Below, piece after piece: positions 42,880 through 59,107 of a stretch of 64,000 nucleotides of DNA. Source of the DNA: Oceanispirochaeta sp. (GTDB taxonomy: Bacteria > Spirochaetota > Spirochaetia > DSM-2461); the NCBI GenBank assembly GCA_963663385.2, contig CAXXXD010000002.1, positions 864,001 to 928,000 of the forward strand, given 5' to 3'. The notes beneath the pieces were generated by a model. It had not been told where the DNA came from. It was given only the letters and a program-made list of their open reading frames with translations, and searched no databases. Numbering within the stretch: the first letter of the stretch is position 1; each line of letters starts with the position of its first letter. The position numbers and the translations under genes are program-made.

Positions 42880-42897
42880 GTGAAAAAAAATTTTATT
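42880..42897 (+). promoter_or_regulatory. Candidate MurR/RpiR operator upstream of murQ
   Basis: GTGAAA-N5-TTTTATT; the same motif occurs at 46158-46175 (minus), 46191-46207 and 52010-52027. Confidence 0.55.
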
Positions 42898-42949
42898 TTT
42901 TCTTTACTCATGTGAAAAATAATTTAAAATCAGATCAAAGGATAAAAAA

Positions 42950-43855
42950 ATGGATGAGTTATCAGGACTGATTACGGAACAACCCAATCCGGCCTCTGCC
43001 GGAATCGATACAAAAAGCAGCAGGGAAATTCTGGATATAATCTGCCAGGAGGATAAGAAGGTTCCCCTTGCAGTGGAGGAAAGCCTGGATCAGATCTCTC
43101 CTCTCATAGACAGGGTTGTCAGCCAATTCCGTCAGGGGGGGCGTCTTTTTTATATAGGAGCGGGAACATCCGGACGCCTCGGGGTGCTGGATGCCTCCGA
43201 GTGTCCTCCCACTTACGGGACAGATCCCGAGATGGTTCAGGGGATTATTGCGGGCGGACAGGAAGCTCTGACCCGTTCAGTCGAGTGGGCCGAAGATAAC
43301 GAAGAGAGCGGAAAGGACGCTCTGAAAGAGAGAGGATTCTGCAAAAAGGATGTTCTTGTGGGTATTACGGCCAGCGGCCAGGCGCCCTACGTTATAGGAG
43401 CCATGAAGTACGCCCGGTCTCTCGGCGCCGGAGTAGGGGCTCTGGGCTGTAATAAAAAGTCTCTTATATTCGACTATGCGGATTATCCCATCTATGTCCA
43501 TGTGGGGCCCGAGATCGTGGCCGGATCAACCCGGATGAAGTCCGGAACAGCCCAGAAGCTTGTTCTGAATATGATCACCACCGCATCCATGATACGCATG
43601 GGCAAGGTGTATAACAATCTGATGGTGGATCTCAAGCCGGTCAACAACAAGCTGATTATCCGTTCAAAAAGATTGATCCGGCTGGCCACGGAGTGCAGTG
43701 AAGAGAAGGCGGAGGAGGTGTTTGAACAGTCCGGCCGGCATGTAAAAACAGCCATTGTAATGGTGCTGCTGGATGTGAACAGAGAGGAAGCCCGCAGGCT
43801 CCTGGAACAGAGCGAAGGACGGGTGGGAACCGCTCTGGAAATAGCCGGGAAATAA
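42950..43855 (+). CDS. murQ: N-acetylmuramic acid 6-phosphate etherase
   Basis: GAGTSGRLGVLDASECPPTYG, GSTRMKSGTAQK and NLMVD. Confidence 0.97.
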   Translation: MDELSGLITEQPNPASAGIDTKSSREILDIICQEDKKVPLAVEESLDQISPLIDRVVSQFRQGGRLFYIGAGTSGRLGVLDASECPPTYGTDPEMVQGIIAGGQEALTRSVEWAEDNEESGKDALKERGFCKKDVLVGITASGQAPYVIGAMKYARSLGAGVGALGCNKKSLIFDYADYPIYVHVGPEIVAGSTRMKSGTAQKLVLNMITTASMIRMGKVYNNLMVDLKPVNNKLIIRSKRLIRLATECSEEKAEEVFEQSGRHVKTAIVMVLLDVNREEARRLLEQSEGRVGTALEIAGK

Positions 43856-43865
43856 GGTCCGGAAA

Positions 43866-44921
43866 TTAAAGAAAGAGGGGGTGGAAGGCTCTCCTGAAGG
43901 CTTTTATTTTTTCGGCGGTCTCCTCCCTGCCGAAGTGGACCCTGTTGGTCAGGGTTACGATTTTCAGTTCCCTTTCCGGATCGATCCAGATACTTGTTCC
44001 TGTAAAACCCGTATGCCCGTAGGAATTACCGGAAAATCCCTGTCCCGCAAAAATTTCAGGGCCGTTGCAGGCTGTTCCGTAAGCCCGGGGATCTCCCTCT
44101 ATTCCTGTAGTAAGATTCTGTGTCATCTTTTCCATAATCTCTTCCGGGAGAATCCGCTTTCCATTCAGTGTCCCCCTGTTCAGGAATACTTCGCATAGGG
44201 CGGACACGCTTTCCAGTGTTCCGAAGAGACCCGCATTGCCTGACACACCGCCCATGGTCCAGGCATTCTCATCATGTACCTCTCCCCGGATCCATCTTCC
44301 TCTCCAGGGATCAAACTCTTCACAAACGGCCCGTGAGCGCTGTTTTCCGACAGGATTAAACATCAGGTCCTTCAGCCCCGCTTTTTCACAGACAATCTGA
44401 TGAAACAGTTTGTCCAGAGGGGCGCCTCCGATTTTTTCGGCAACCAGGCCCAGCAGGATAAATCCTGTACAGCTGTAAACAACGGAATGACGGGGGGGCT
44501 GATGTGGTTTAATACCCAGAAGATGCTCTACAGCCTGCTCCCGGCTGCAGGAGTTGCCGTCCGGGAAGAGTTTGAACATTTCCGGGAGGGCAGGGAGTCC
44601 GGAAATATGAAGCAGGATGTCATGCAGTTTCAGCTCCGATGTGTCCTTTGATCTTGCAGGAAGAAAGACTCCCAGAGTCTTTTCTGTTGAAAGGCCTTCC
44701 TGTTCCAGCAGGTGGAGCAGCACAAGGCTGGTAGCAAGTGGCTTGGTAAGGGAGGCGAGCCCGAACAGGCTGTCTCTTTTCAGCTCTTCTCCCCCGTTCA
44801 GGAGGGATGCCTTTCCCCGTACACTCTGAAAGATGATCTTCCCTTTTTTCTCCACCTGTACGGCAATCCCCGGGAAGGTGTTCTCCGCCAGGGCCTCTGT
44901 TATGAGCTTGTCCGGATCCAT
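43866..44921 (-). CDS. Beta-lactamase-family serine hydrolase (AmiE-like)
   Basis: SxxK (ASLTK), YSC, GEVHDENA, GNAGLF and GHTGFTG; no signal peptide. Confidence 0.88.
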   Translation of the reverse strand: MDPDKLITEALAENTFPGIAVQVEKKGKIIFQSVRGKASLLNGGEELKRDSLFGLASLTKPLATSLVLLHLLEQEGLSTEKTLGVFLPARSKDTSELKLHDILLHISGLPALPEMFKLFPDGNSCSREQAVEHLLGIKPHQPPRHSVVYSCTGFILLGLVAEKIGGAPLDKLFHQIVCEKAGLKDLMFNPVGKQRSRAVCEEFDPWRGRWIRGEVHDENAWTMGGVSGNAGLFGTLESVSALCEVFLNRGTLNGKRILPEEIMEKMTQNLTTGIEGDPRAYGTACNGPEIFAGQGFSGNSYGHTGFTGTSIWIDPERELKIVTLTNRVHFGREETAEKIKAFRRAFHPLFL

Positions 44922-44935
44922 TGTTCTCTTTCCTT

Positions 44936-46117
44936 CTATGTTCTTTCCAGGATATTAAAAACCGTCAGGGGTTTGGACAGTTTTCCGCAAATGGCGGGAC
45001 CGGAAGCTCCGGTGGCAGCCGGGACATTGGAAGGAAGGTTCAGCATGTAGTAGAGTCCCATAAGCGCAAAGGCCGCCGCCTCTTTAAAGTCAGTTGGAAT
45101 CCCCGCTTCGTCTCCTGTCATAACCCGGGATGAGGGCAGTCCGGATTTAAGGGATTCCATAATTATGGGATTATGTGCCCCGCCTCCTGTTACAATCACA
45201 TTGTCGGGTACAGCAGGGAGCCATTTATTATAGCTGTAGATAATACTTTCGGCTGTAAACATAGCCGCTGTGCGGATCAGATCTTCATAGGATACATCAT
45301 CAGGCATAGGGTAGTCCTGAAAAAAACGGTCTCCGAACAGTTCCCGACCTGTGGATTTGGGCGGTTGAATTCTGAAGTAGGGATGACCCATCCAGCATGA
45401 CAGAAGCTTGTGGTTAACCCGTCCCCTCAGGCCGATGAGGCCGCCCCTGTCATAGTGCTGCTCACCTGAACTATGCTGCTCAACCAGTATGTCCAGAATC
45501 ATATTGCCGGGACCGGTATCGAAGGCAATCAGTCCGCTGTCCCCTTCAGCAGGAATAAAGCCGACATTACCGATACCTCCGATATTCTGGAAGGCTGAGC
45601 TGCCTTCGAACCCCCTGGCCAGAATGGCATCAAGCAGGGGAACAAAGGGCGCGCCGCCGCCTCCTGCTGCCATATCGGCCGGACGGAAATCGCTTACTGT
45701 GGGTATTCCGGTTTTCCGGGCTATGACCGAACCTTCCCCGATCTGCAGGGTTCCCGCCTGAGGGGCGCCCAGGTACTCCTCAGGCTGCCCGATGTGGTGA
45801 ATCGTCTGGCCATGGGAGCCGATAACGCTTACCTCTGCCGCCTTTGTCCCTGTTTCTTCAAGGAGCCTGTTAACACAGTCCCCGTACACCTCGCCCAAAC
45901 GCATGTTCAGCAGGGTCAAACGGGGGAGCAGGTCTTTGCATCCGGCCGTTACATCCAGTATCTCCTGTCTCAGGGTTCCGGTAAACGGGTAGGTTCTGGC
46001 CGCAATAGTGTCCAGACCGACTCTTTTCCCGTCCATGGAAATTCGGAAGAGTCCCGTATCTATCCCATCTACTGAAGTTCCCGACATGAGGCCTATGGCC
46101 AGGTATTCCTTTTTCAT
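44936..46117 (-). CDS. anmK: Anhydro-N-acetylmuramic acid kinase
   Basis: GLMSGTSVDGID, GSHGQT, DFR..D.AAGG.GAP, NIGGI, DTGPGN and KSTGRE. Confidence 0.95.
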   Translation of the reverse strand: MKKEYLAIGLMSGTSVDGIDTGLFRISMDGKRVGLDTIAARTYPFTGTLRQEILDVTAGCKDLLPRLTLLNMRLGEVYGDCVNRLLEETGTKAAEVSVIGSHGQTIHHIGQPEEYLGAPQAGTLQIGEGSVIARKTGIPTVSDFRPADMAAGGGGAPFVPLLDAILARGFEGSSAFQNIGGIGNVGFIPAEGDSGLIAFDTGPGNMILDILVEQHSSGEQHYDRGGLIGLRGRVNHKLLSCWMGHPYFRIQPPKSTGRELFGDRFFQDYPMPDDVSYEDLIRTAAMFTAESIIYSYNKWLPAVPDNVIVTGGGAHNPIIMESLKSGLPSSRVMTGDEAGIPTDFKEAAAFALMGLYYMLNLPSNVPAATGASGPAICGKLSKPLTVFNILERT

Positions 46118-46157
46118 GAGAATATTATGATTGTGTTGGAACGGCTTGTCAAAAGGA

Positions 46158-46234
46158 AATAAAAAAATATTTCACTCATATTGTCTTTCTGTGAAAAATA
46201 TTTTATTGACGTGAATAATGATGGATCGTATACT
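46158..46234. promoter_or_regulatory. ABC operon promoter with two operator-like motifs
   Basis: TTGACG(46206)-N17-TATACT on +; two GTGAAA...TTTTATT copies in opposite orientations; the divergent anmK promoter lies just to the left. Confidence 0.7.
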
Positions 46235-46257
46235 CTCATATTATTGGAGGAAAAATC

Positions 46258-47487
46258 ATGAAAAAACTGACAGGATTCCTATTGCTGGTTCTACTGACCT
46301 GTTCCATGGTCTTTGCCGGCGGCGCTCAGGAAGAAGAAGTGCCTGAAAAACTCGTCTACCTGACAGCCAGCTGGGGAGCCCCTTCCCAGGAGCTGCTGGA
46401 TAAATATGAAGCGGAAACCGGCATCAAGGTTGAAGTCTCTTCGTTAAAGGAAGCAGATTTGAGAAATAAAGTAATGTCTGCCGCAGCGGGGAAAACCAGT
46501 CCCGCGGATATTATTTTTACCGGAATCAGCAACTTCGGCGTTTTTGGTCACTCCGGGATTCTGAAACCTCTGGATGACTTTGTTTCCGCTGAAACTTTTG
46601 ACAGTGTTATGGGCCGTCAGTTTTTTCAGATTGACGGAGAAACCTACTGCGTCCCCATGTATCAGCAGATGGTCATGATCGACTATGACAAGGGTTCCCT
46701 CGGAAAAATCGGACTGGACGGCAAGGATATCAAAACCTGGGATGATTTTGAAAACGCCGCACTGAAACTGAAAGCGGAGGGCATCCTGGAATATCCCCTG
46801 GCTTTTGCCGTTCGTCACTGGTCCTGGTATCTGATGGCCCTTTCCCAGGGGAGCACTCTTTTTGATGCCGATGGCAATCCCACCTTTGATGATCCTTCCG
46901 ATCCCGGATACGGCGCTTTCATACAGCTGATCCGCTACTTCGAAGAGGGACTCATTTCTCCCGAAAGACTGACCTCTCCCAATGCCCATCCTTCTTTCTG
47001 GGCCGGACAGGCTGTTTTTCATCAGGCATGGCAGGGCTCTCTGGCCATTGCCAACAACCCGGAGAAATCCAGGATTGCCCCCCATGCGGACTACCTGCTC
47101 CTTCCCGACCAGCACTACACATGGAGCCTCCCCGCCGGTCTGGGTATTTCCGCCTATTCCAAATACCCCAAAGCCTCTCTTCAGTTTATCGAGTTTATGA
47201 TCTCTGAAGAGGTTCAGAACTTCGGATATGAGGCCAACGGTATGTTCCCGGCCCTGACCAGCCTTTTTCAGGACCTTGGCAACAGCGGAAAAATCGAGGG
47301 ATGGGAAGTCATGTCCGAACAGGCAGACTACCTTGTGCCCCTGCCGTATAACACCCCCTGGTTCGCCGAGTTCGAGACAGAACTGAAGGATGTGCTGATC
47401 CGTGTGGCAAGAGAAGAAGTGACTGCGGAGGATGCTATTAAAAACCTGGCTGATTTCCAGAGAACACTGAAAGCCGAATACGAGTAA
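46258..47487 (+). CDS. CUT1 carbohydrate ABC substrate-binding protein
   Basis: Signal peptide with FAGGAQEE; ETGIKV; DGETYCVP. Confidence 0.9.
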   Translation: MKKLTGFLLLVLLTCSMVFAGGAQEEEVPEKLVYLTASWGAPSQELLDKYEAETGIKVEVSSLKEADLRNKVMSAAAGKTSPADIIFTGISNFGVFGHSGILKPLDDFVSAETFDSVMGRQFFQIDGETYCVPMYQQMVMIDYDKGSLGKIGLDGKDIKTWDDFENAALKLKAEGILEYPLAFAVRHWSWYLMALSQGSTLFDADGNPTFDDPSDPGYGAFIQLIRYFEEGLISPERLTSPNAHPSFWAGQAVFHQAWQGSLAIANNPEKSRIAPHADYLLLPDQHYTWSLPAGLGISAYSKYPKASLQFIEFMISEEVQNFGYEANGMFPALTSLFQDLGNSGKIEGWEVMSEQADYLVPLPYNTPWFAEFETELKDVLIRVAREEVTAEDAIKNLADFQRTLKAEYE

Positions 47488-47606
47488 GTGATTCGCCTGC
47501 GGGTTTGAATATCCCGGAGAAATTAAAAAAGCAGCGGGGCGATCCGATAAGAGAGTATCTTATGGGGGAGCCCCTTTTTTCAAGTTAATCGGAGGATGTA
47601 AAAAAA

Positions 47607-48497
47607 GTGATGAAAAAGTTTTCCAGGTGGCTGGACGACAGCACCCATCTGGCCATGGCGATTCTTATTCCGTCCATGCTCCTGCTGGTGGCCTTTGCCT
47701 ACCTGCCGGCGCTCTATTCCCTGCGCTTCAGTTTTCTGAAGTACAATATCAAGATGCCCAACAATATCCGTTTTAACGGATTGGACAACTATGTTCACAT
47801 TCTGAAGGATCCTGTTTTTATCAGTTCTGTAATTCGGGTCTCCTACTTTATGGTTTTCGGGACATTTATGGTTCTTGCCCTGTCCATGTTATTTGCCCAG
47901 GTCCTGAATCAGGAGTTCCGCGGCCGGGGATTTCTCCGGGCGGCGGTTATCATCCCCTGGGCCATCCCCCCGGTTGTTAACGGTCACCTCTGGAAATGGA
48001 TATTCAACGGGGAATACGGGGCATTCAACGGGCTTCTCTATCAGTTCGGGATTATAGACAGCTATCATTTCTGGCTGACAAATCCCGCAGTAGCCCTGAA
48101 CGTGGCCATTTTTATCTTTGTATGGCGTTATATTCCCTTTATTACCATACTCTTTCTGGGAGTTCTCCAGTCCATTCCGCCCGAGCTCTATGAGGCGGCC
48201 AGGGTGGACGGGGCCAATGCAGCCCGTCGTTTTTTCCATATTACCCTGGGGTCCATGAGACGGATCAGTGTGATTGCAATCGTTTTGACCCTGATTGCCG
48301 CTTTCTCCGTTTTTGACGGGATATATGCGCTGATGGAATTCGACGAGGCAACCAAAACTCCCATGATCTACAACTATCAGATGACCTTTGAAATGGGACG
48401 GTTCGGCCGGGGTTCCGCCATGGCGTACCTGGTGGGGCTCTTCCTTTTCGGTTTGACTTTCATCTATCTCCGGATGAGCCTGAAGGAGGACCGCTGA
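47607..48497 (+). CDS. CUT1 ABC permease (MalF-like)
   Basis: GLDNY, PWAIP and the EAA loop YEAARVDGA. Confidence 0.93.
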   Translation: MMKKFSRWLDDSTHLAMAILIPSMLLLVAFAYLPALYSLRFSFLKYNIKMPNNIRFNGLDNYVHILKDPVFISSVIRVSYFMVFGTFMVLALSMLFAQVLNQEFRGRGFLRAAVIIPWAIPPVVNGHLWKWIFNGEYGAFNGLLYQFGIIDSYHFWLTNPAVALNVAIFIFVWRYIPFITILFLGVLQSIPPELYEAARVDGANAARRFFHITLGSMRRISVIAIVLTLIAAFSVFDGIYALMEFDEATKTPMIYNYQMTFEMGRFGRGSAMAYLVGLFLFGLTFIYLRMSLKEDR

Positions 48498-49363
48498 TGA
48501 AAAAGCCTATGAGTTTCAAGGTCCTTCTGGGCTTTCTTATCCTCTTTATTCTGTTCTGGACTCTGGCGCCCCTTTTGTGGATTGCCATTTCGTCCATCTC
48601 TCCCCGGACGGAGCTGTATAATGTTCCTCCCCACTGGATTCCCCATGAACCTACTCTGGAAGCCTATGATAAAGTACTGATTTCCGGTGAAGGATTTCGG
48701 GGCGGAGGCGGAATCAGCGCGGCCAAACTGTTCCGGACGGGTATTGCCAACTCTCTGATAATTTCCCTGTCCACAACCGTGATGGTCATGTTCTTTGCAC
48801 CCCTTCTGGGGTATGCCTTTTCAAGGCTGCATTTTAAGGGAAAAAATCTCTTTTTTATGGCGATTATCGGAATCATCGCCCTGCCTGGCTGGCCTGTATT
48901 GATCGGACTGTTCAGCCAGTTCAGCATGATGGGGCTGCTGGATACAAAATGGGGATTGATCCTGCTCTCCTTTACCTTCCGTCTGCCCTTTGAAACCTGG
49001 TTTATGAAGGGGTATTTTGAATCGGTTCCCCAGGAAGTGGAGGATGCCGCCCGTATAGACGGCTGTACCCATGTGGAGACCCTCTTCCGGATCAGTCTGC
49101 AGATGGTAATGCCCGGGCTGATTGCGGTCACCATTATCTCCTTTCTGCACACCTGGAATATGTTTGCGGCCCCCCTGGTCCTGACCTACACCCTCAAGTC
49201 CAAACCCTTAACGGTAACAATGACCGAGTTTATAGGTCAGTACTATGTGCATTGGGATCTGATGTCCGCGGCTACCATCCTGGCCATTATCCCTCCGGTT
49301 CTGATCGTCGTTATCTTTCAGAAATATATTATCCGGGGACTTTCCGCCGGAGCAATCAAGTAG
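48497..49363 (+). CDS. CUT1 ABC permease (MalG-like)
   Basis: EDAARIDGC and C-terminal FQKYIIRGLSAGAIK. Confidence 0.93.
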   Translation: MKKPMSFKVLLGFLILFILFWTLAPLLWIAISSISPRTELYNVPPHWIPHEPTLEAYDKVLISGEGFRGGGGISAAKLFRTGIANSLIISLSTTVMVMFFAPLLGYAFSRLHFKGKNLFFMAIIGIIALPGWPVLIGLFSQFSMMGLLDTKWGLILLSFTFRLPFETWFMKGYFESVPQEVEDAARIDGCTHVETLFRISLQMVMPGLIAVTIISFLHTWNMFAAPLVLTYTLKSKPLTVTMTEFIGQYYVHWDLMSAATILAIIPPVLIVVIFQKYIIRGLSAGAIK

Positions 49364-49374
49364 CCTGTTTCTCT

Positions 49375-49495
49375 CCCCCTCGGCTCCGCTTGGGAGCAGG
49401 GGGGACTGGCTGATTAAAAATGTTTTGTATTTCTCTACGAAGGAGAAAAACAATACAGATTCCCCCTCCTTGAGGAGGGGGCCAGGGGGAGGTCT
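49375..49495. repeat. Composite of two REP-like palindromic repeats (copy B)
   Basis: 49375-49394 resembles 35343-35362; 49435-49495 resembles 26981-27040; located between convergent genes. Confidence 0.75.
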
Positions 49496-49500
49496 AGGGA

Positions 49501-51075
49501 TCAATTACCCAGTTTAACCGGGCAGCGTCCTTCCGCCGGGATTTCTCCCTTTAAAAAGGCAATCAGGCTGTCTACCGCCAGGACTGTATTCTCGTATCCC
49601 AGAACAAGGAAGTCCGCTTCCGGAAAGGAGGCCGCCTCGTAGGGGGAGCGCATAACAGCGATCCCTGTGGGCGTTTCACTTCTGCAAATTTCCTGAATCC
49701 TGTTCACAGCTTTGGGGAAGAAACCGGCATCTGCTGTTACAAGCAGTATTCTGTCGTACTGTTCAGTTCTGACCGGTTCTTTATCCAATATTTCCTCTGT
49801 TTCATCAGCCGGAATAATCCGGAAACAGGATTCGGGGAAGGCCTTTTTCAGACGGAGCATGGGGTTTCCCCCCGATACGGTATTCTCACCGATAAACTGC
49901 TCCGGCCTCTGCATAACAAGAATCAGGGTTTTATCCGAATCGGTCAGTCTGCCTTTATCCAGAAAAGAGTTTTCCCGTATCAGAGTCAGGCTCTTCCGGC
50001 TTATCTGCTCCAGTTCCGGATCGGGGGTGCTGCCGACCCATCCGGGTACCGGAGATATCTCGTTTTCAATACCGGGGAGGAATTTCCGGCGGGCTTCGGC
50101 CAGCCTTGCCAGGGACCGGTCAATCCGTGATTCCCCCAGGCGGCCTTTCATAACCTCATCATAGAGGGCTTTGGCAGCCTTCTCCTGTTCCTCCGGGGTA
50201 TGGGAGACAAAAAGCATATCCGCCCCGGCCTTAAGGGCCATTACTACGGCCTGTTCTGTAGAATAGTATTTTCTGACTCCCTGCATTTCCAGGCAGTCCG
50301 TCAGAACCAGTCCTTTAAATCCCATCTGCTCCCGTAACAGGTTTGTTATAATTCCGGGAGAGAGGGAGGCGGGCACACCGGAGCTGTCCAGGGCGGGTAT
50401 AAGCATATGGGCTATCATAATCGCAGGGACTCCCCGTTCAATTCCTTTGACAAAGGGGTACAGCTCCCGTTCTTTCAGAAGAGGGTAGGGGTGATTGATC
50501 AGAGGGAGGGCCTTATGAGAGTCCGTGGCAGAGTCCCCGTGACCGGGAAAATGCTTGAGTACGGGAATCACTCCTCCTTCTTCATACCCTTCGGCGGCAG
50601 CCAGGGCATAACGGCTTACCTGTTCGGGGGTGTCCCCGTAGCTGCGGGAGCCCACAATCGGATTAGACGGATTGCTGTTGATATCCGCCACCGGGGCCAG
50701 ATTCATATTGAATCCCAGTGAACGGATATGCCGGGCTGTTCCCTCCGCTGCTTTGCGTGCCAGATCCGCCCCGCCCGCTGCGGCGCAGGCCATAGCTCCG
50801 GGGTAGGTATTGAGGTCCCCGTGAAAGCGGCTGACAATCCCTCCCTCCTGATCGATGGTCATATAGGGGTAATCCCCGTTGTTCTGCCTGGTCTCGGCTA
50901 TTATCTCCCGGCTGAGTTCGGCCGTCTGTTCGTATCCCTCGATATTCCGGGCGAAAAAGATCCAGTTCCCTATCTTCAGGTCCCTGTAGAGGAAGCGGGC
51001 ATGTTCGCCGGCCTTTGTTCCTTCAAATCCGCATACCAGGAGGCGGCCTATTTTTTTCTGAAGATCCCTGTTCAT
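49501..51075 (-). CDS. nagZ: GH3 beta-N-acetylhexosaminidase
   Basis: IDQEGG, KHFPGHGDSATDSH and LTDCLEM; has a C-terminal domain; no signal peptide. Confidence 0.92.
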   Translation of the reverse strand: MNRDLQKKIGRLLVCGFEGTKAGEHARFLYRDLKIGNWIFFARNIEGYEQTAELSREIIAETRQNNGDYPYMTIDQEGGIVSRFHGDLNTYPGAMACAAAGGADLARKAAEGTARHIRSLGFNMNLAPVADINSNPSNPIVGSRSYGDTPEQVSRYALAAAEGYEEGGVIPVLKHFPGHGDSATDSHKALPLINHPYPLLKERELYPFVKGIERGVPAIMIAHMLIPALDSSGVPASLSPGIITNLLREQMGFKGLVLTDCLEMQGVRKYYSTEQAVVMALKAGADMLFVSHTPEEQEKAAKALYDEVMKGRLGESRIDRSLARLAEARRKFLPGIENEISPVPGWVGSTPDPELEQISRKSLTLIRENSFLDKGRLTDSDKTLILVMQRPEQFIGENTVSGGNPMLRLKKAFPESCFRIIPADETEEILDKEPVRTEQYDRILLVTADAGFFPKAVNRIQEICRSETPTGIAVMRSPYEAASFPEADFLVLGYENTVLAVDSLIAFLKGEIPAEGRCPVKLGN

Positions 51076-51923
51076 AGCTTATCCCCCATCAGGGCCTGTC
51101 GGGTTTTTTCCAGTATGGCCCGGAAACCCTCCGGGTCTCCCGCTGTTATACGGGAAAAGAGTATATCGATTACCGTCAGCTGGGCAATCCGTGATGTCAT
51201 GGCGGCTTCCCGGATAAGGGACTCATTCATGGGGGTAAAGAGGTTAATGGCACACATTTCTTCCAGCGTATTGGCTCCGTAACGGGTCAGGCTGATGGTA
51301 GACGCCTTGTTCTCATTCGCCTGATGAACGGCCTTGATGACTTCCTTTGTTTCTCCCGAATAGGATATGGCGATGGCCGCGTCCTTGGCCGAGAGGGAGC
51401 AGGCGGATGTTATCTGCATATGGGAGTCAGCGATATACTGGCAGTTCAGGCCGATCCGGCACAGTTTCTGATAGAGGTCCTGAGCCACGATCCCGGAGGC
51501 CCCCAGGCCGTAGATATCGATCCTGTGACTTTTAAGGATACAGTGGGCGGCTTTTTCAACGGATTGGACATCCAGTACGGAGTCAATGCTCCTGAGGGAG
51601 CTTATATGGTTGTTGATAATGGCTGTTTTCAGCTCATCCGGGGGAAGGTCCTTTTTGACGGATTCCCGGCTGCTGCGGTCCTGCTCCCGGCTCAGGTCCA
51701 TGGCAATCCGCAGTTTCAGTTCGTTGTATCCCTTCATGTCAAGGCGTTTGCACAGGCGTACGATTCCCGCCGGGCTGCCTCCGCACTCCGCTGCCAGATC
51801 GGAGATATTCATCTCCATGGTTTTCCGGGGATTCTCCAGTATCCAGGAGGCTATTTTCTGCTCCCCCGACGGCATATTATGGAGGGATTCTTTCAGGATT
51901 ATCAGTCCGCTCTGCAATTTCAT
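51072..51923 (-). CDS. murR: MurR/RpiR-family transcriptional regulator
   Basis: HTH (SPAGIVRLCKRL) plus SIS domain (GLGAS, ISYSGET, SRIAQL). Start set at ATG 51923. Confidence 0.9.
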   Translation of the reverse strand: MKLQSGLIILKESLHNMPSGEQKIASWILENPRKTMEMNISDLAAECGGSPAGIVRLCKRLDMKGYNELKLRIAMDLSREQDRSSRESVKKDLPPDELKTAIINNHISSLRSIDSVLDVQSVEKAAHCILKSHRIDIYGLGASGIVAQDLYQKLCRIGLNCQYIADSHMQITSACSLSAKDAAIAISYSGETKEVIKAVHQANENKASTISLTRYGANTLEEMCAINLFTPMNESLIREAAMTSRIAQLTVIDILFSRITAGDPEGFRAILEKTRQALMGDKL

Positions 51924-52269
51924 AAATGGGCTCTCTTTATATATTTTTCTATCATGTTTCCAACCTGGAATTTCTATTTTAACATTTTTTTTCAAAAACG
52001 TGAAAATAAGTGAAAAAATGTTTTATTAAAAGACCTTGAACCGGTTCATCCCTAAAGCACTGGAAAAAATTATTCATTGATTAAAAAAATATAGTTTATT
52101 TATTAATCAGCTTGTGATATGTTATCGATTGATCATTTATTTAACCCAAGTTTAAAAAACAATTCTATAATTTGCTGATTCCATTGTTTTGTAACCGCAT
52201 GGTTGTTGTTTTTAAGCAGAATCGGATTATATCGGGCTATCGGATAGAGGTGCAGCGTAAGGAGTACTA

Positions 52270-53334
52270 ATGAAATACCTGTTCAGATGGGTTATTGTTC
52301 CAGTTCTGTTATTTTTTCTGGTTTCCTGTTCCATGTTTGATGAGGGATCGGATGATTCTGATGATGAATCAAGTTCGGATGGGGGAACTCTTGAAATCAA
52401 TCTAACGTATCTATCAAAAACACTTCTTTCGTATTCTGATAATGATTTATCAGTGTTAACTGCTAAAGTTGATATTTGTGATTCCGATGGATATTCATTT
52501 TTTACATCAGAAGACTTGGAACTAACAGATACTATAAAAGTTAATGATGTTTATATTGGAACTGATTTAACAGTAGAAGTAAATATCTGTAATTCTTTCG
52601 AAAATAATGGCATATTAGAAAGCGGTTCTCAATCAGGTGTAAATATAATTAGTGATACGCCAACAGTTTTGAATATTTCATGTACACCTAATCCCTCTCA
52701 ATTTATGTTTTGTCGTGATATTGATTCAAATGAAATAGACTGGTATGAAATCGATTTATCTGTTGATAACACATATACGTTTATTCAAAGCAGTCCTAAT
52801 GCTGTAACTTGTATATTTGACGCTGAATATAATTTCATTGATGTAATTGATGGTATAAATTCATATGATTATGCATGTGAAGTTAGTGGAACATACTATA
52901 TTGGGATTTATGCAAATCAAGCTGCTGATAATATCTTGAGAATGGCTGAAAATGTTACTCAACTGGAATTATTTTCCCTAATAGAAGGAGCTGTTTCTTC
53001 AACGAATACTGATATCTGGTATGAATTAAATGTTACTCCCGGGGATACATATCAGATTAAATGGAATGATGTGGATTCATGTATTAATACCGGTACATTT
53101 ACCTTTGATGGAAGTGATAGTTTATATACAGCTGATATTACAGCAACTGCGTTTTCAGAATCATCTGATGATGAATATATCTATGGTTCAGGATGGACAA
53201 TAACGATTCAGGAAGGAGACTCTAAGCTTTTCATGTGTGTTAATTCTAAATACGTAAATGGTAACACAATATATGGATCGTATCAAATTACTGTTGAGCC
53301 ATATAAGGGCAATCTGCATATCGATGTTCAATAA
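52270..53334 (+). CDS. AT-rich acidic lipoprotein with beta-rich/PPC-like modules
   Basis: Lipobox LVSC; acidic linker; DWYEI...GTYYIGI and DIWYEL...GSYQITV modules. Confidence 0.8.
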   Translation: MKYLFRWVIVPVLLFFLVSCSMFDEGSDDSDDESSSDGGTLEINLTYLSKTLLSYSDNDLSVLTAKVDICDSDGYSFFTSEDLELTDTIKVNDVYIGTDLTVEVNICNSFENNGILESGSQSGVNIISDTPTVLNISCTPNPSQFMFCRDIDSNEIDWYEIDLSVDNTYTFIQSSPNAVTCIFDAEYNFIDVIDGINSYDYACEVSGTYYIGIYANQAADNILRMAENVTQLELFSLIEGAVSSTNTDIWYELNVTPGDTYQIKWNDVDSCINTGTFTFDGSDSLYTADITATAFSESSDDEYIYGSGWTITIQEGDSKLFMCVNSKYVNGNTIYGSYQITVEPYKGNLHIDVQ

Positions 53335-53366
53335 TTTTTATCTATTAATTCAGGAGATATTTATAA

Positions 53367-54875
53367 ATGAAGAGAATTAAATTACTGCAAATAATATTGC
53401 TATTAATGGTACTATCATCCTGCTCAATGTTTTTCAGTTCAAATGATGATAATATGAAAAAACACACAAATTCTGATTCTGGTTCAATTACAATTAGTCT
53501 TAGTTATATGTCTCAAGTGCTACAGGATTATTTCGACTCTCAATCCAGAGCATTATTGTATACAAATTCTGCTCTTATCGAGATTCAGGATTCAGATGGG
53601 AATGATATTGTTGATCCGGTAACTGTTAATTTGTCTACAAGCAGTTCATTTGAGAATAATTCTGTAGAAGTCACAACTATCAATGATATTCCCAGTGGAA
53701 CTGACTACACCGTGAAAATTAGTATTTATAACTCGGCAGTAAGTACAACTGAACCTATAGTAACTGGTTCTGCTGATCCTGTTACAATTTTTAATAATAA
53801 TACCACAAATGTCAGTATTGTTTGTTTACCGGAAAATCCAATAACCATTACCGCAGATGATGGACCATGGAATTATGAATTGGCAGCGAATGAAGAGAAA
53901 TGGTACAAAGTCTCTTTTGATCCATTGATCAATTATACTATATCCCAAGCAACAACAGGAATCGGAACATTCCTATATGATTTCCAAGGTAAATATATCG
54001 CATCTATTAACGATGTTACTCCATATACTTTTGAATGTGTTACTACTGCCTATGGTGACTATTATATTGGAGTTACATCAAGTAGCTCAGGAACAAGTAT
54101 ATTGAATATTACATCTTCGATTCCAGAGGTCTATGAAGGAACTATTACAACTCCGAAAATAATTTCAATTGATACTCAACGAATCTTTAGAATTCCGAGA
54201 AGTGATAGCAGTAATGGCAGAAGCTATTATGCGTTTGGGACAACAGAGGCTGGAGAATATTATCTGGATTATTCACTTTATAATTGGGGTGTAATATGGG
54301 GATTAAGTGCAAGCCTTTATTCTGATAGTACATTTTCTAATCAGTTAGATACCAGTTTTCATTATACTACTGGTCTGTATTATGGTTGGTCTTTAGGAAC
54401 TTTAGATGCTTATACTACTTACTATTTAGAGCTAGGGAGTGAATTTAAAAATGCATTTTCTGGAATAATTTCTTCTCCTGCTTATGTCGAATCGCAAGGG
54501 CAAAATGACGGTTCAATTGATTCTCCAGCCATATTAAGTATAAATACAAAAAATAGCTGTACTGTTGGAACATGTAGTTTTGATCGAATCAGTTATTATA
54601 CTTTTACTACCGGTAGTGAAACGAATTATGATATTACTTTAGAAGGAGAAGAATCAATGCTCTACCCTTTTGATGTATCAGGTGGTGTGTATTCAGATTC
54701 TGATTTTACAGATCAGATAACTAATTTTGATATAATAGGTTGTGCTTATGGAAATAAATATACTTTTAAAGAAACTTTAGCAGCTGATACGAAATATTTT
54801 ATCAAAGTTAAAAATGGATTTGAATTCATAACTTCTGATACTGATCAAAAATTCAGCATTCTTATTGAATCTTAG
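53367..54875 (+). CDS. AT-rich lipoprotein, paralogous to the upstream gene, with repeated beta modules
   Basis: Lipobox LSSC; repeated SYY.F.T...YSDS.F..Q...L.A.T.Y modules. Confidence 0.8.
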   Translation: MKRIKLLQIILLLMVLSSCSMFFSSNDDNMKKHTNSDSGSITISLSYMSQVLQDYFDSQSRALLYTNSALIEIQDSDGNDIVDPVTVNLSTSSSFENNSVEVTTINDIPSGTDYTVKISIYNSAVSTTEPIVTGSADPVTIFNNNTTNVSIVCLPENPITITADDGPWNYELAANEEKWYKVSFDPLINYTISQATTGIGTFLYDFQGKYIASINDVTPYTFECVTTAYGDYYIGVTSSSSGTSILNITSSIPEVYEGTITTPKIISIDTQRIFRIPRSDSSNGRSYYAFGTTEAGEYYLDYSLYNWGVIWGLSASLYSDSTFSNQLDTSFHYTTGLYYGWSLGTLDAYTTYYLELGSEFKNAFSGIISSPAYVESQGQNDGSIDSPAILSINTKNSCTVGTCSFDRISYYTFTTGSETNYDITLEGEESMLYPFDVSGGVYSDSDFTDQITNFDIIGCAYGNKYTFKETLAADTKYFIKVKNGFEFITSDTDQKFSILIES

Positions 54876-54921
54876 TTTTTTTGGGGAGAAATAAACTGAT
54901 TTGATTTAAATGTATATATCG

Positions 54922-54949
54922 AGGGCTGGCCGAATGGCCAGTCCTATTT
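54922..54949 (+). terminator. Probable terminator hairpin
   Basis: GGGCTGGCC-GAAT-GGCCAGTCC followed by TATTT. Confidence 0.6.
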
Positions 54950-55054
54950 CATAGAGTCTCTTATCAAAACATATTAATGTTAACTCATATTTCTTAGCAG
55001 AAAGAGGCCGCTCACGAAAATAACATCCATAACCCTGCAGGAATCCTCCTGAGC

Positions 55055-55375
55055 TCAAGAAGTCAGCCTGTAATCCAGAATATGCGGTTCCCTTTCCAGC
55101 AGCTCCAATAATATCTTTGTTGAACCTGTGGGCGTTCGTTTACCCTGCTCCCACTGTCTGACCGAAGACGCGCTCACATTGAGTAATTTGGCAAATACAG
55201 CCTGACTGAGATGTATCGACTCCCGTATTTTCTTAATATCTTCTGCGGAAACATGTACTTCCGGAATGTTAATACCTAACGATTTTAATTCTTTATCCGT
55301 AAATGAAGTAGGAAGTCCCGCATCCATCAGATCCTGAACAGTTTCGGCAATAGAGTCTCTTATCGAATCTCTCAT
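55055..55375 (-). CDS. HigA-like XRE HTH antitoxin
   Basis: IRESIHLSQAVFAKLLNVSASSVRQWEQGKRTP; directly downstream of the toxin. Confidence 0.9.
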   Translation of the reverse strand: MRDSIRDSIAETVQDLMDAGLPTSFTDKELKSLGINIPEVHVSAEDIKKIRESIHLSQAVFAKLLNVSASSVRQWEQGKRTPTGSTKILLELLEREPHILDYRLTS

Positions 55376-55376
55376 A

Positions 55377-55745
55377 CTATTCTCCTATTTCCTGCAAAGC
55401 CTTATTTTTTATAGCTGTTTCCAGTTGGTGCTTATTCAGATTTAATAAATCTTTGCCAATTTTTTTGAAATACTCCAATTCTTTACTGGAGATATTATCC
55501 AGTTCATTTTTTGCAAAGCCATAAATGAAAACAGCTCTATCATTTTCCTTGTAGATAACGATTGTTCTGAAACCACCACTTTTTCCGGATCCTTTTCTGG
55601 CAATCCTGACTTTAAATATATTGGACCCGAGGTTCACCGAGGATAAATCCGATTCAAGATGATTAATGGCATCATTAAGACTATTATCAGCAATATCATT
55701 CTTTTTAGCCCATTTGGTAAACCATTTCGTTTTCAGTTTCTTCAC
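55377..55745 (-). CDS. RelE/HigB-like type II toxin
   Basis: KTKWF.KWA, KVRIA...GKSGGFR and FIYGFAKNE; toxin-first gene order. Confidence 0.9.
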   Translation of the reverse strand: MKKLKTKWFTKWAKKNDIADNSLNDAINHLESDLSSVNLGSNIFKVRIARKGSGKSGGFRTIVIYKENDRAVFIYGFAKNELDNISSKELEYFKKIGKDLLNLNKHQLETAIKNKALQEIGE

Positions 55746-55950
55746 AATTTAAATGTATCACATTGTAGTATAGGTGTCACGGTTTATTATCGTTTGATTT
55801 GATATTTCCATGAATGATCTAATTAAAGAAGCATATACTCTTTTTAAGAGTAAACAGTTCTGATAGGTGGAATGAATCCCTTTTTCATAGAGCTCCTTCC
55901 CCAAAACATGTTAATATTCACTCATATTTCATCACCGAAAGAGGCCGCCC

Positions 55951-57015
55951 ATGAAAATAACATCCATCACCCTGCACGAATCCGCCTTCCCCCTCCAAAA
56001 ACCCTTTGTCACCGCCCTCCGCCGGGTGGATTCCGTCCAGGTATTCCATCTGATTATCGAAACGGACGAGGGGATCTGCGGAACAGGCGCCGCCTCTCCC
56101 ACAGAAGCCATTACGGGAGAAACTGTAAAAACCATTAAAGAGGGAACCGCTATTTTCGACAACCTGCTGAAGGGCCGGGAGCTGGATGATCTGAACGGGC
56201 TTCTGGAAGAGGTCCAGACGGCCGTTCCGGGATATATCGCTGCCAAAGCAGCGGTGGATATGGCCCTGTATGATCTGTTTTCCGGAAAAAGCAATCTGCC
56301 CCTCTGCCGTTTTCTGGGCGGCAGCCCCTCGGGTATCGAAACGGATCTGACCATTTCGCTCCGTGAGAAGAATCAGATGGTCGCCGATGCCCTGGAAGCG
56401 GAAAAACGGGGATTCCACACCCTCAAGATAAAGCTGGGGGATGAGTGGTCCCGGGATGTCGACCGGTTTCAGGGGATTGCGGAAGCTGTTTCCTGCCGGC
56501 TCAGGATTGACGCCAATCAGGGCTGGTCCGTAGAGGATACCCTCCGATTTATGGACAGGCTGGAACGGACCGGCAGGGAGATCGATCTTCTGGAACAGCC
56601 TGTCAAGGCGGATGACCTGAAGGGCATGGCCGCTATCCGGGAGAGGATCAGCTGCCCCCTGGCCGCGGATGAAAGTGTGTTCTCCCCCCGGGACGCTTTG
56701 AGAGTGATCGATGCGGGCGCCGCGGATATTATCAATATCAAGCTGCTGAAATCCGGTGGAATACGGCAGGCCGGGAAAATTGCCGCTCTTATAGATACGG
56801 CTGGGCTGACAGGGATGATCGGCTGTATGATGGAAAGCCCGGTCGGGATTGCCGCCGCCCTCCATTTTGCCGCGGCAAACCCTGTTATCCGCTATTACGA
56901 TCTGGATGTCCCTCTTCTGCTGAAGGAGATTCCGGAAGGGTACGGTTTAAGCTGTTCCGGCATCCGTATCGCTCCCCGGGATTACCCGGGACTGGGCGAA
57001 TGTGCTCTGGCATGA
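55951..57015 (+). CDS. Dipeptide epimerase (L-Ala-D/L-Glu epimerase-like, enolase superfamily)
   Basis: KIK, DANQGW, EQP, ADES, NIKLLK, GCMMES and DLD. Confidence 0.88.
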   Translation: MKITSITLHESAFPLQKPFVTALRRVDSVQVFHLIIETDEGICGTGAASPTEAITGETVKTIKEGTAIFDNLLKGRELDDLNGLLEEVQTAVPGYIAAKAAVDMALYDLFSGKSNLPLCRFLGGSPSGIETDLTISLREKNQMVADALEAEKRGFHTLKIKLGDEWSRDVDRFQGIAEAVSCRLRIDANQGWSVEDTLRFMDRLERTGREIDLLEQPVKADDLKGMAAIRERISCPLAADESVFSPRDALRVIDAGAADIINIKLLKSGGIRQAGKIAALIDTAGLTGMIGCMMESPVGIAAALHFAAANPVIRYYDLDVPLLLKEIPEGYGLSCSGIRIAPRDYPGLGECALA

Positions 57016-57070: not shown

Positions 57071-57937
57071 ATGTATACGGATTTACAGAATGAAAGCCTG
57101 AGTGTCAGGATTTATACCAACGGGGCGGAGATGAAAAGCCTGAAACTGGAGGGAAAAGAGTACCTCTGGCAGGGAGATCCCGCCTCCTGGAACGGCAGTT
57201 CCCCCCACCTTTTTCCCGTAATCGGCCAGACCCCGGAAAAAGGCTGGCAGTGGAAGGGCCGGGAACTGAAAATGGGGAACCACGGTTTTGCCCGGAGCAG
57301 CGACTTTGAAGTGATGAAAAAGGATGAGACCGAAGCGTCTTTCCGTCTGAGGGACACTGTCGAAACACGGGAAGTCTATCCTTTCAGGTTTCTGCTGGAC
57401 ATCAGCTATAAGCTCAAAGGGAATTCCCTGATTGTCGATTACCATGTGGAAAATCCGGGGGACGAAGACCTCCTTTTTTCTCTGGGGGCTCATCCCGGAT
57501 TCCTCTGTCCCCTTGAAGAGGGCCTGAAGTTTTCCGACTACTACCTGCAGTTCAGCGAAAAGGAAACGGCTGACCGCAGGCTCAAGGATGATTATCTGAC
57601 AGGCGAGAGAACCCCGGCTTTGAAGGATCAGGACCGCCTGGATCTGGATTACTCCCTTTTTGACCGCTGCGCCCTGATCTTCTCGGACCTTAAATCCGAC
57701 TCGATTGAACTGAAGAGCGATAAATCCGACCGTTCTGTCAGGATGGATTTCAAGGGGTTTCCCGATTTCGGGATCTGGACTATCTCCGGTAAAGAGGCTC
57801 CCTATATCTGCCTGGAACCCTGGTACGGTGTCGATTCCACACTGGGCGATTCATCGGATTTTGAAAAGAAAGAGGGGCTGATCCGCCTGAACGGGGGCGG
57901 GGAGTTTAACTGTTTTTATACTGTTACACTGAAATAG
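57071..57937 (+). CDS. Aldose 1-epimerase family (LacX-like)
   Basis: EYLWQGD, LFP, HGFAR, GAHPGF and CLEPW. Confidence 0.9.
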   Translation: MYTDLQNESLSVRIYTNGAEMKSLKLEGKEYLWQGDPASWNGSSPHLFPVIGQTPEKGWQWKGRELKMGNHGFARSSDFEVMKKDETEASFRLRDTVETREVYPFRFLLDISYKLKGNSLIVDYHVENPGDEDLLFSLGAHPGFLCPLEEGLKFSDYYLQFSEKETADRRLKDDYLTGERTPALKDQDRLDLDYSLFDRCALIFSDLKSDSIELKSDKSDRSVRMDFKGFPDFGIWTISGKEAPYICLEPWYGVDSTLGDSSDFEKKEGLIRLNGGGEFNCFYTVTLK

Positions 57938-57946
57938 GACGTTGCC

Positions 57947-59107
57947 ATGCCATCATTCCAGAATGCTTTATATTCTCTGTTTCCCGAATCAGAGGGGGCC
58001 GAGTGGGCGCCCTCTCCGGAGCTGCTGAAAGGGTATGACCGGGAGGGGATCGACTTCTCGCCTTTCCTGGATGCCGGTGCTGTACGGGAAAATGCCCTAT
58101 GGGCGGAGCTCCCCCCGGATTGGGAGGAAGATATTTTAAGAGCTTCCGGACTGATCCTCCGGAATGCTTCCCTTTTGAAAGTATTCTCTCTGGTTTCCCA
58201 GCTTCTGATTCATGAAAGGACGGGGTATAAGGGCGCACAGCTGAAACACTGGCCGGATCCGGAACAGGACATGGGGGAGGATGCGCCTCTCTTTTATCTT
58301 CTTGTTACCCTGAACTGTATCCCCTTTGTGCGGGAACTTCACCGCAGGATGGGGATTCCCGAAGATATCACCCGTGACACCTGTGCCGGGATTGGCACCA
58401 AATGCCTGGATTACTTCTTTTTTCACGGGAAGCCGGGTGTTGTCAAATGGGCTGTCTACTGGTTCAAACACCATCTGGACGGTGAGCTCTTCCGGGTGGG
58501 GCGTCTGGAATATATGATAAAGAAACTGCAGAAGGACATACGCGTCTACCGGAACCCCGCAGGCAAAACAGCTTTGACCATGGAAGAACCGGGAAGCGGA
58601 AAGGCTATACTTGTCAGGCCTGACGGTTCCTGCACGGAAAATACTCTTCCGACTGATTCGGAGTGGACGAGCTGCCTCAGCGGAGAGGATTACGTGCTGG
58701 ATATCCATATTCCCGGCGGAGGAAAGCTGGATCTGGCTGCAGTAAAGGATTCCATGGTCAGGGCGGTGGATTTTTTCGACCGGTTCTTTCCTGAGAAAAA
58801 GACCAGGGGCTTCGAGTGTATTTCCTGGATCTTCAGCCGGGATCTGGAGGCCGTGTTCAAACCGGAGGCCAATCTGATAAGGTTCCGGGATCAGGTCTAC
58901 CTTTTTCCCGTGGAAACGGAGAAGGTGGACGGCTACTACTTTCTGTTTGGTACCTTCTCAAAGAACCCCGATGACTGGCCGGAAAAAACAAGTCTCCAGC
59001 GGAATCTGAAAGCCCATATTCTGAATGACGGTTCCTTTCGTCTGTCCGGTATGGTGTATCTGCGGGATGATCTGGAGAGGTTCGGAGATTTTCCTTACAG
59101 GGGCTGA
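57947..59107 (+). CDS. Putative acyltransferase-domain protein (DUF5596/DUF5597-like)
   Basis: FRVGRLEY, LDIHIP.GG and C.SWIF motifs. Confidence 0.7.
   Translation: MPSFQNALYSLFPESEGAEWAPSPELLKGYDREGIDFSPFLDAGAVRENALWAELPPDWEEDILRASGLILRNASLLKVFSLVSQLLIHERTGYKGAQLKHWPDPEQDMGEDAPLFYLLVTLNCIPFVRELHRRMGIPEDITRDTCAGIGTKCLDYFFFHGKPGVVKWAVYWFKHHLDGELFRVGRLEYMIKKLQKDIRVYRNPAGKTALTMEEPGSGKAILVRPDGSCTENTLPTDSEWTSCLSGEDYVLDIHIPGGGKLDLAAVKDSMVRAVDFFDRFFPEKKTRGFECISWIFSRDLEAVFKPEANLIRFRDQVYLFPVETEKVDGYYFLFGTFSKNPDDWPEKTSLQRNLKAHILNDGSFRLSGMVYLRDDLERFGDFPYRG

Follow-up and report, generated by a model that had tools for sequence, protein, structure and literature searches.

Organization of the cluster

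The stretch analyzed here, called the window, comprises 64,000 nucleotides of an Oceanispirochaeta sp. genome (G000:C2:864001-928000; in such handles G stands for a genome, C for a contig, L for a homologous locus and P for a homologous protein). The genome amounts to 5.3 Mb and is 98% complete. Between positions 42950 and 51923, eight genes are clustered that encode the etherase MurQ, a serine hydrolase, the kinase AnmK, a solute-binding protein (SBP) with two permeases, NagZ and a MurR-like regulator (Table 1). As judged by family and profile matches, all eight are found where an earlier note on this DNA had placed them. As it also stated, ampG, phosphotransferase system (PTS) genes and ATPase genes are absent within the cluster. 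The genes form four transcription units rather than one operon: murQ (+), anmK-amiE (-), SBP-permease-permease (+) and murR-nagZ (-).

The genes murQ, anmK and that of the hydrolase are each present in single copy in the genome. NagZ, the MurR-like regulator and the hydrolase are family-level assignments, each scoring below the cut-off of its model: 180 bits against PRK05337 (cut-off 207) for NagZ, 100 bits against the MurR equivalog (cut-off 408), and 144 bits against PBP4B/YfeW (cut-off 385), the best NCBIfam model for the hydrolase. The closest structure to NagZ is that of the GH3 β-N-acetylglucosaminidase 6K5J (E 1.7e-97). The start of murR is placed at the ATG at 51923; the frame reported by the open reading frame (ORF) finder runs on to a TTG at 51995. 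The hydrolase carries SLTK, YSC and HTG motifs, which fit the SxxK, Yx(N) and HTG motifs of the AmiE/YfeW β-lactamase-fold serine amidases. Two of its homologues, P0368 and P0380, are fusions to a GH3 C-terminal domain. The enzyme is likely an exo-acting amidase cleaving the bond between N-acetylmuramic acid (MurNAc) and L-Ala.

Signal peptides were called with a simple hydropathy scan and not with SignalP. The best 11-residue hydropathy at the N-terminus is 1.13 for NagZ and 0.84 for the hydrolase; the SBP reaches 2.75, and two exported-looking GH3 proteins encoded elsewhere in the genome reach 2.98 and 2.41. The absence of a signal peptide from NagZ and the hydrolase, asserted in the earlier note, is consistent with this lack of a hydrophobic N-terminal stretch. 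The SBP, with its MalE fold and export-signal-like N-terminus, and the two MalF/MalG-type permeases have the composition of a CUT1 importer of the ATP-binding cassette (ABC) class.

Table 1. Features of the cluster and its surroundings, in window coordinates
Feature	Position	Strand	Evidence or remark
Predicted MurR operator	42880-42896 and 42912-42928		Tandem imperfect palindromes upstream of murQ
murQ, MurNAc-6-phosphate etherase	42950-43855	+	TIGR00274, 390 bits (cut-off 302)
AmiE/YfeW-like serine hydrolase, predicted cytoplasmic	43866-44921	-	PF00144
anmK, anhydro-MurNAc kinase	44936-46117	-	NF007148, 419 bits (cut-off 387)
Back-to-back σ70-type promoters	46124-46234	anmK on -, importer on +	
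Predicted operator boxes	46159-46175 and 46191-46207		Between the -35 elements of the anmK and importer promoters, 32 nt apart
CUT1 MalE-fold SBP, signal-peptide-like N-terminus	46258-47487	+	PF01547
MalF/UgpA-type permease	47607-48497	+	PF00528
MalG-type permease	48497-49363	+	PF00528
Terminator-like hairpin, G+C-rich, 8-pair stem	49462-49481		Between the convergent permease and nagZ genes
nagZ, two-domain GH3 β-N-acetylglucosaminidase, predicted cytoplasmic	49501-51075	-	KHFPGHGDSATDSH motif
murR-like RpiR-family repressor	51072-51923	-	HTH_6 and SIS
Predicted operator	51979-51995 and 52010-52026		Tandem boxes upstream of murR
L-Ala-D/L-Glu epimerase-like gene	55951-57015	+	Closest structure 1JPM (L-Ala-D/L-Glu epimerase), E 5.8e-76
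NAT_N/GNAT_C acyltransferase	57947-59107	+	After the epimerase also in G009 and L070

Promoters and predicted operators

The promoter-like site of anmK (TTGACA-17-CATAAT) and that of the SBP gene (TTGACG-17-TATACT) match the consensus at 11 and 10 of 12 positions, respectively, and are the cluster's two among the three best in 16.6 kb. The former ends 7 nt before the ATG, so that a leaderless anmK transcript is predicted.

Paired boxes lie at three promoters of the cluster, with similar boxes ahead of the SBP gene at many of the homologous loci. A weight matrix was built from 23 such sites in 12 other genomes (three of the 23 look mis-picked and were left in), and tandem pairs were scored across the 5.3 Mb. 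The murQ, murR and anmK/SBP promoters occupy ranks 1-3. With wider spacing windows, murR ranks 1, murQ 2 and anmK/SBP 5. None of 12 column-permuted control matrices placed all three promoters in the top 50. Neither the murQ nor the murR site is homologous to a position used in training, which makes the ranking genuine evidence that the importer is part of the murQ regulon, and that it would be co-regulated with murQ and murR through a common predicted operator. A strict motif count, by which three of four genome matches fall in the cluster, was dropped as circular and replaced by this cross-genome model.

In Escherichia coli, MurR binds two adjacent repeats and is released by MurNAc-6P (PMC9177960; papers are cited by PMC number for the portion of their text that was available). 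The regulator encoded here likewise combines an RpiR helix-turn-helix with a SIS domain, and has paired predicted operator sites.

Transporters and pathway enzymes in the genome

Profile searches of the genome gave no match for AmpG (TIGR00901), any PTS EIIC, MurP included (PF02378), AmpD (PF01510) or LdcA (PF02016), and MurK-type, AmgK, NamZ (two queries), GH84, GH20 and GlmA-like queries also gave none. NlpC/P60 gave a single match (E 3e-7), too weak to establish a source of L-Ala-D-Glu stems. Three SLT (lytic transglycosylase) genes are present. Three further GH3 proteins have NagZ-like motifs, two of them with signal-like N-termini. The gene nagA is found on contig C3 (G000:C3:677401-680000, L035), after a galactokinase-family gene that is possibly an amino-sugar kinase. 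Since five PTS enzyme I-type matches exceed the cut-off and no EIIC permease is found, the PTS proteins of this genome are probably regulatory.

The earlier note had proposed ABC import in place of AmpG or MurP, and had suggested searching the genome for both. Neither was found. AmpG was also missing from all 30 genome handles searched and PTS EIIC from all 29; these had been picked for having the SBP or anmK, and two of them, G019 and G071, are one genome. The absence looks lineage-wide rather than the result of a displacement. The idea that the cluster displaced AmpG or MurP was rejected as untestable, no searched handle having either.

The ATPase of the importer was expected in the earlier note to be a shared one of the MsmX type. 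A candidate gene does exist: the best MalK/UgpC match is an orphan (G000:C4:348860-349942), 35.8 kb from any CUT1 permease cluster. The missing ATPase was rejected as a special trait of the cluster, since only 4 of the genome's 60 CUT1-like permease clusters have a MalK-type ATPase within 6 kb. With 56 of 60 lacking one, a shared, unlinked ATPase is the rule.

The binding-protein family and its distribution

The structure model of the SBP has a MalE fold (pLDDT 94). The ligand was sought through sequence, profile and fold searches of the PDB, which returned generic CUT1 matches at 17-23% identity; the nearest solved relative is a β-1,2-glucooligosaccharide binder (~23% identity). At E≤1e-20, 120 homologues were retrieved, mostly above 48% identity, and in a profile search few clusters exceed 250 bits, the next matches being generic CUT1 proteins. 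The SBP is the founding member of an uncharacterized CUT1 binding-protein family as predicted from sequence. Named members come from Spirochaetota, Thermotogota, KSB3/Moduliflexota, KSB1, Hakubella, Anaerolineae and one Thermoprotei archaeon; the nearest homologous loci of the cluster belong to Spirochaetales/Spirochaetaceae. Neither a characterized CUT1 binding protein for MurNAc-containing sugars nor a spirochaete cluster of this kind was found in full-text literature searches (subscription papers and supplements were outside their scope).

Residues W39, Y135, Q137, W188, H244, Q256, W258, W289 and W368 are almost invariant. An arginine occupies position 186 in 60 and position 364 in 42 of 103 aligned rows, never both where both positions exist. 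It may hold the lactyl carboxylate of MurNAc; its placement in the pocket is extrapolated from MalE landmarks, and the swap between 186 and 364 is one clade-level event and not many. A quick tree covered 73 rows of at least 330 residues and is not used for claims on the direction of transfer.

Of 61 relatives, 4 have the SBP, as do 2 of the 11 genomes within the genus; across the phylum it was seen in 1 of 401 genomes (four candidates were scored per genome). Full-length anmK is likewise found in 4 of the 61 relatives, three of which also have the SBP. As most sampled spirochaetes do without, the module is accessory. Its role is probably salvage of nutrients no less than upkeep of the wall, and both own-wall and foreign fragments are plausible feeds for the importer.

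Gene neighborhoods of the homologues

Co-occurrence with anmK and murQ, whose absence the earlier note had named as a refutation, was looked for in 26 genome loci and is not lacking. A MurNAc-specific gene is present in 24: anmK in the flank of 17, namZ in five more, directly after the permeases or after GH20, and an AmgK gene, fused to RapZ, with murA and a long MurQ-like gene in two more. At L015, a GH84 gene and a GlmA-like acetyltransferase gene are found, and anmK, amiE and murQ are on another contig. L020, with lactate-dehydrogenase-like and electron-transfer flavoprotein (ETF) genes, stops within the first permease. Among genomes bearing the SBP, 18 of 26 have anmK, one copy each, as compared with 3 of 401 genomes of the phylum. 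In the genome under study, one of 60 CUT1 clusters adjoins the single anmK.

The set was enlarged with 79 metagenome loci and two relatives. Merging the SBPs at 95% identity gave 77 clusters, 63 of which have at least 5 kb of sequence; neighbors were labeled by BLAST against a custom panel (E<1e-7). Among these 63 merged loci, anmK is present in 32, murQ in 23, a hexosaminidase in 32 (nagZ-like in 25), an amiE-like gene in 17, namZ in 8 and the epimerase in 5. Any MurNAc-pathway gene is found in 44, any wall-recycling gene in 54 and none in 9. For homologues with at least 60% identity to the SBP, anmK is the most constant partner (17/21, with nagZ in 6/21 and GH84 in 5/21). In the 30-45% identity band, nagZ is found in 17 of 25 loci, mostly straight after the permeases, and co-linear SBP-permeases-nagZ-(murQ, anmK, amiE) operons recur. 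Depending on the clade, the glycosidase linked to the importer belongs to GH3, GH84, GH20 or NamZ, none with an evident signal peptide.

The epimerase-like gene comes directly after murR in G009 and L070, and lies ahead of nagZ-murR in L007 and L008. Here a low-GC insertion (52270-55745) has moved it ~4 kb away from murR.

Several further genes recur in these loci. D-lactate-dehydrogenase-like/ETF genes and GlmA-like acetyltransferase genes are repeatedly found beside the SBP homologues. Genes for a FAD-linked GlcD-like oxidase and ETF adjoin murQ or the importer at L008:5240-7787, L070, L034:4854-8241 and L020:6626-9859; their products are candidates for a D-lactate dehydrogenase acting on the lactate released by MurQ. 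Stand-alone, cytoplasmic-looking GH84 enzymes, closest to O-GlcNAcases, are encoded beside anmK and the importer at L002:13075-15037, L003, L004, L010 and L015, which suggests that some bacterial GH84 enzymes may fill the role of NagZ in wall recycling. In three of these five loci a two-domain, GlmA-like GNAT matching PDB 5KF1 is present.

In the KSB3/Moduliflexota loci L014:6916-18635, L016 and L056, a second CUT1 system and a 526-residue MurQ-like protein are encoded between the SBP and permease genes, and murA with an AmgK-RapZ_C fusion is found upstream in L014 and L016. The long proteins (~590-960 residues) encoded at L017:3881-6769, L125, L126 and L127 match nothing in Pfam apart from part of a MurQ-like SIS domain; they recur in genomes without a standard murQ. 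Thermoprotei-type archaeal homologues (L074, L075, L076 and L114; P0121) are 41-43% identical to the SBP and keep the conserved residues. In G010, a genome of the same genus, the slot of the CUT1 importer is taken by a peptide-type ABC transporter after anmK (L031:7760-19086). In two other spirochaetes (L122 and L123), unrelated CUT1 binding proteins are encoded beside anmK/murQ; as other CUT1 subfamilies thus occur in similar clusters, the arrangement recurs and was recruited more than once.

Proposed route and alternatives

The best overall explanation, which we hold to be reasonably probable, is that GlcNAc-anhydroMurNAc (anhMurNAc linked to N-acetylglucosamine), bare or short-stemmed, is imported and broken down in the cytoplasm under a common predicted operator. 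The hybrid, ABC-fed route put forward in the earlier note is thereby supported by the operator common to the importer, murQ and murR and by the gene neighborhoods, its ligand and amidase parts being predictions. Anhydro-ended fragments would be released by the lytic transglycosylases or by neighboring cells. The periplasmic SBP would capture the disaccharide and the two permeases would import it, powered by an unlinked MalK/MsmX-type ATPase, for which the orphan on contig C4 is the best candidate. In the cytoplasm, NagZ would take off the GlcNAc and the AmiE-like enzyme any stem peptide, and the epimerase would convert L-Ala-D-Glu to L-Ala-L-Glu; the families are observed, and these activities are extrapolated from E. 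coli and Bacillus subtilis. AnmK would then form MurNAc-6P, which MurQ would split into GlcNAc-6P and D-lactate, with NagA continuing the path; these last three reactions are established chemistry of their families. MurNAc-6P would lift MurR off the tandem boxes at the three promoters.

The ligand is very probably a wall fragment containing MurNAc. That it is the disaccharide GlcNAc-anhMurNAc has a somewhat better than even chance. The main argument is the presence of four unrelated, cytoplasmic-looking glycosidase families behind one importer, which points to a di- or oligosaccharide. The anhydro end is proposed because AnmK is present, MurK-type and AmgK queries gave no match, and SLT genes are present. 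If the disaccharide is the ligand, carriage of a peptide along with it is conceivable, though we lean against it. It is favored by the location of amiE on the anmK transcript, by the epimerase in the cluster of relatives and by AmpD not being found in the genome. It is disfavored by the numbers of merged loci with amiE (17/63) and the epimerase (5/63), by LdcA not being found and NlpC/P60 matching weakly, by the conserved arginine of the SBP, and by the peptide-type transporter in the same slot in G010.

Several points weigh against import of the disaccharide under a common operator. The design of the operator (tandem, with its spacing) was picked after the sites of the window had been seen. 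The closest characterized binding proteins (~23% identity) take unrelated sugars and give no information on the ligand. The neighborhood counts come from related loci and are not independent. Nine of the 63 merged loci have no wall-recycling gene, several of them ending at a contig edge; the Thermoprotei-type loci L074, L076 and L114 and the locus L105 have none although their downstream side is open, and the Thermoprotei-type archaeal loci have a MalK gene of their own. No hexosaminidase is found in the flank of 31 of the 63, and G009 keeps its nagZ orthologue elsewhere in the genome. The clade closest to the SBP is most constant in anmK, and the disaccharide could be cut while still outside the cell by the two exported-looking GH3 proteins that carry NagZ-like motifs.

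These last two observations are also what would be expected if the importer took up monosaccharidic anhydroMurNAc or MurNAc, as an ABC stand-in for MurP/MurT. Exported GH3 enzymes would then cut disaccharides outside, and the cytoplasmic NagZ and AmiE would act on fragments arriving by another route, such as Opp/Dpp. The single arginine at 186 or 364 (100 of 103 rows), which could pair with a free lactyl carboxylate, and the peptide-type transporter of G010 are in keeping with this, but a bare disaccharide also has a free carboxylate. Moreover, clades without AnmK have a cytoplasmic-looking NamZ, sometimes with GH20, encoded straight after the permeases, and such enzymes require an intracellular oligosaccharide; in 17 of the 25 distant loci nagZ comes after the permeases, and the nearest solved structures bind di- and oligosaccharides. 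Monosaccharide uptake is considered unlikely. Less probable still is that the main ligand is the full muropeptide (GlcNAc-anhMurNAc-tri/tetrapeptide), the importer functionally replacing AmpG when the cell recycles its own wall as housekeeping. The amiE-like gene on the anmK transcript, the epimerase of relatives, the failure to find AmpD and the presence of lytic transglycosylases would suit it. The scarcity of amiE and the epimerase among the merged loci and the failure to find LdcA in the genome would not, and the distribution of the SBP given above is not a housekeeping pattern. In addition, the ABC importers of muropeptides or wall peptides described in the available text of PMC9790009 and PMC13204101 are of the peptide type.

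The importer might instead carry another amino-sugar oligomer, of the chitobiose type, or an unrelated sugar, the regulon being common because the product GlcNAc joins the pathway. NagZ, GH84 and GH20 are all able to cut chitobiose. One 48% homologue, P0111, is labeled a diacetylchitobiose-binding protein in one source (an automatic label, its cluster mates being labeled otherwise), and archaeal homologues lack wall-recycling neighbors. However, the recurrent neighbors (AnmK, MurQ, NamZ, AmgK and AmiE-like proteins) are specific for MurNAc across several phyla, the solved chitin-oligomer binders match only weakly (E 2e-15 and 9e-14; the best match has 3e-32), and no chitinase was noticed among the neighbors scanned. 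This alternative appears the most improbable of those weighed.

Returning to import of the disaccharide, a wider generalization seems doubtful to us. The SBP would found a MalE-fold receptor family for peptidoglycan glycan fragments, carrying GlcNAc-anhMurNAc-L-Ala-D-Glu here and re-tuned to MurNAc-GlcNAc in other clades. As equipment for feeding on the walls of other cells, it would have reached Spirochaetota, Thermotogota, Moduliflexota, Anaerolineae-like bacteria and even wall-less Thermoprotei archaea.

Comparison with known systems

As deduced from its genes, the system matches the part of the E. coli route that takes place in the cytoplasm, with the enzymes of the B. subtilis operon placed inside the cell; it is a member of neither, since no AmpG, AmpD, MurP or secretion signals were found. 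With the E. coli AmpG-NagZ-AmpD-LdcA-AnmK-MurQ route it shares a cytoplasmic NagZ, AnmK and MurQ in series on anhydro-ended fragments, MurR-type control and a yfeW-like β-lactamase-fold gene near murQ (PMC5061867). It differs in that searches for AmpG, AmpD, LdcA and MurP gave no match; their places are taken by a CUT1 ABC importer and an AmiE-like hydrolase. With the B. subtilis murQ-murR-murP-amiE-nagZ-namZ operon it shares murQ, murR, an amiE-like gene and a two-domain nagZ in one regulon, the NagZ-then-AmiE order, and namZ in some SBP-homologue loci (PMC5061867, PMC8054146). In B. subtilis, cutting is external and the monosaccharide is imported by the PTS, and the cited work concludes that GlcNAc-anhMurNAc is not taken up. 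Here, in contrast, uptake would be by an ABC importer, AnmK is present, NagZ and the hydrolase have no hydrophobic N-terminus, and namZ was not found in the genome.

The YejBEF-YepA system of Agrobacterium is similar in that an ABC importer replaces AmpG upstream of NagZ and AnmK, but it is of the peptide type, with an unlinked binding protein, and is confined to Alphaproteobacteria (PMC9790009). The importer described here is of the sugar type (MalE fold), is clustered and predicted to be co-regulated with the enzymes, and would feed MurQ. With its SBP_bac_1 protein and MalF/G-like permeases it also differs from the family 5 peptide-type components of YejBEF-YepA and Opp-MppA. The MurK/GlmA/NagZ/AmiE cluster of Clostridium acetobutylicum reportedly combines cytoplasmic NagZ and AmiE with a proposed peptide-type ABC importer and the kinase MurK instead of AnmK. 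GlmA-like acetyltransferases (PDB 5KF1 match) and MurK-like kinases are encoded beside SBP homologues. The CUT1 oligosaccharide binders, such as Lin1841 for β-1,2-glucan (PDB 5YSB-5YSF), NagB1/B2 for chitin oligomers and UspC of Mycobacterium tuberculosis, resemble the SBP in fold (TM-score ~0.8) and transporter class. They are at most ~23% identical to it, and in the available portions of the sources none was found shown to bind MurNAc-containing sugars.

All the kinds of enzymes involved are already known, as is muropeptide import by peptide-type ABC transporters (PMC9790009), and no new chemistry is proposed. The sugar-type binding-protein family, recognized by homology, is uncharacterized. 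The step of peptidoglycan-sugar uptake is unknown in many lineages without AmpG and MurP: according to a 2026 paper, the mycobacterial importer of MurNAc is still unknown (PMC13691567), and Streptomyces coelicolor is described as having murQ and lacking murP (PMC5061867). The candidate receptor offered by the locus is soluble and readily expressed, its possible ligands form a clear short list, its family is well bounded, and an operator is predicted. Should it be confirmed, a sugar-type ABC route would join AmpG, MurP, MurT, YejBEF-YepA and Opp-MppA. It would also serve as a marker of anaerobes that scavenge walls in sediments and hot springs, hint at what stand-alone GH84 enzymes natively do in bacteria, and could yield a sensor protein for wall fragments.

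Other features of the window

The insertion between murR and the epimerase gene has a GC content of 32-35%. Its ORFs at 52270-53334 and 53367-54875 have lipoprotein-like N-termini and no Pfam or NCBIfam match; they are followed by a RelE-family toxin and a helix-turn-helix antitoxin on the - strand. The toxin-antitoxin pair is flanked by an 86-nt direct repeat, 86% identical (54965-55050 and 55902-55987); the repeat copies the stretch ahead of the epimerase gene together with its first codons, and looks like an insertion scar. After the dipeptide epimerase, an aldose-1-epimerase-family gene and the NAT_N/GNAT_C gene span 57071-59107; the latter accompanies the cluster in G009 and L070. A gene at 3157-4986, 38 kb from the cluster, is presumably glmS-like, as judged by eye and outside the profile scan.

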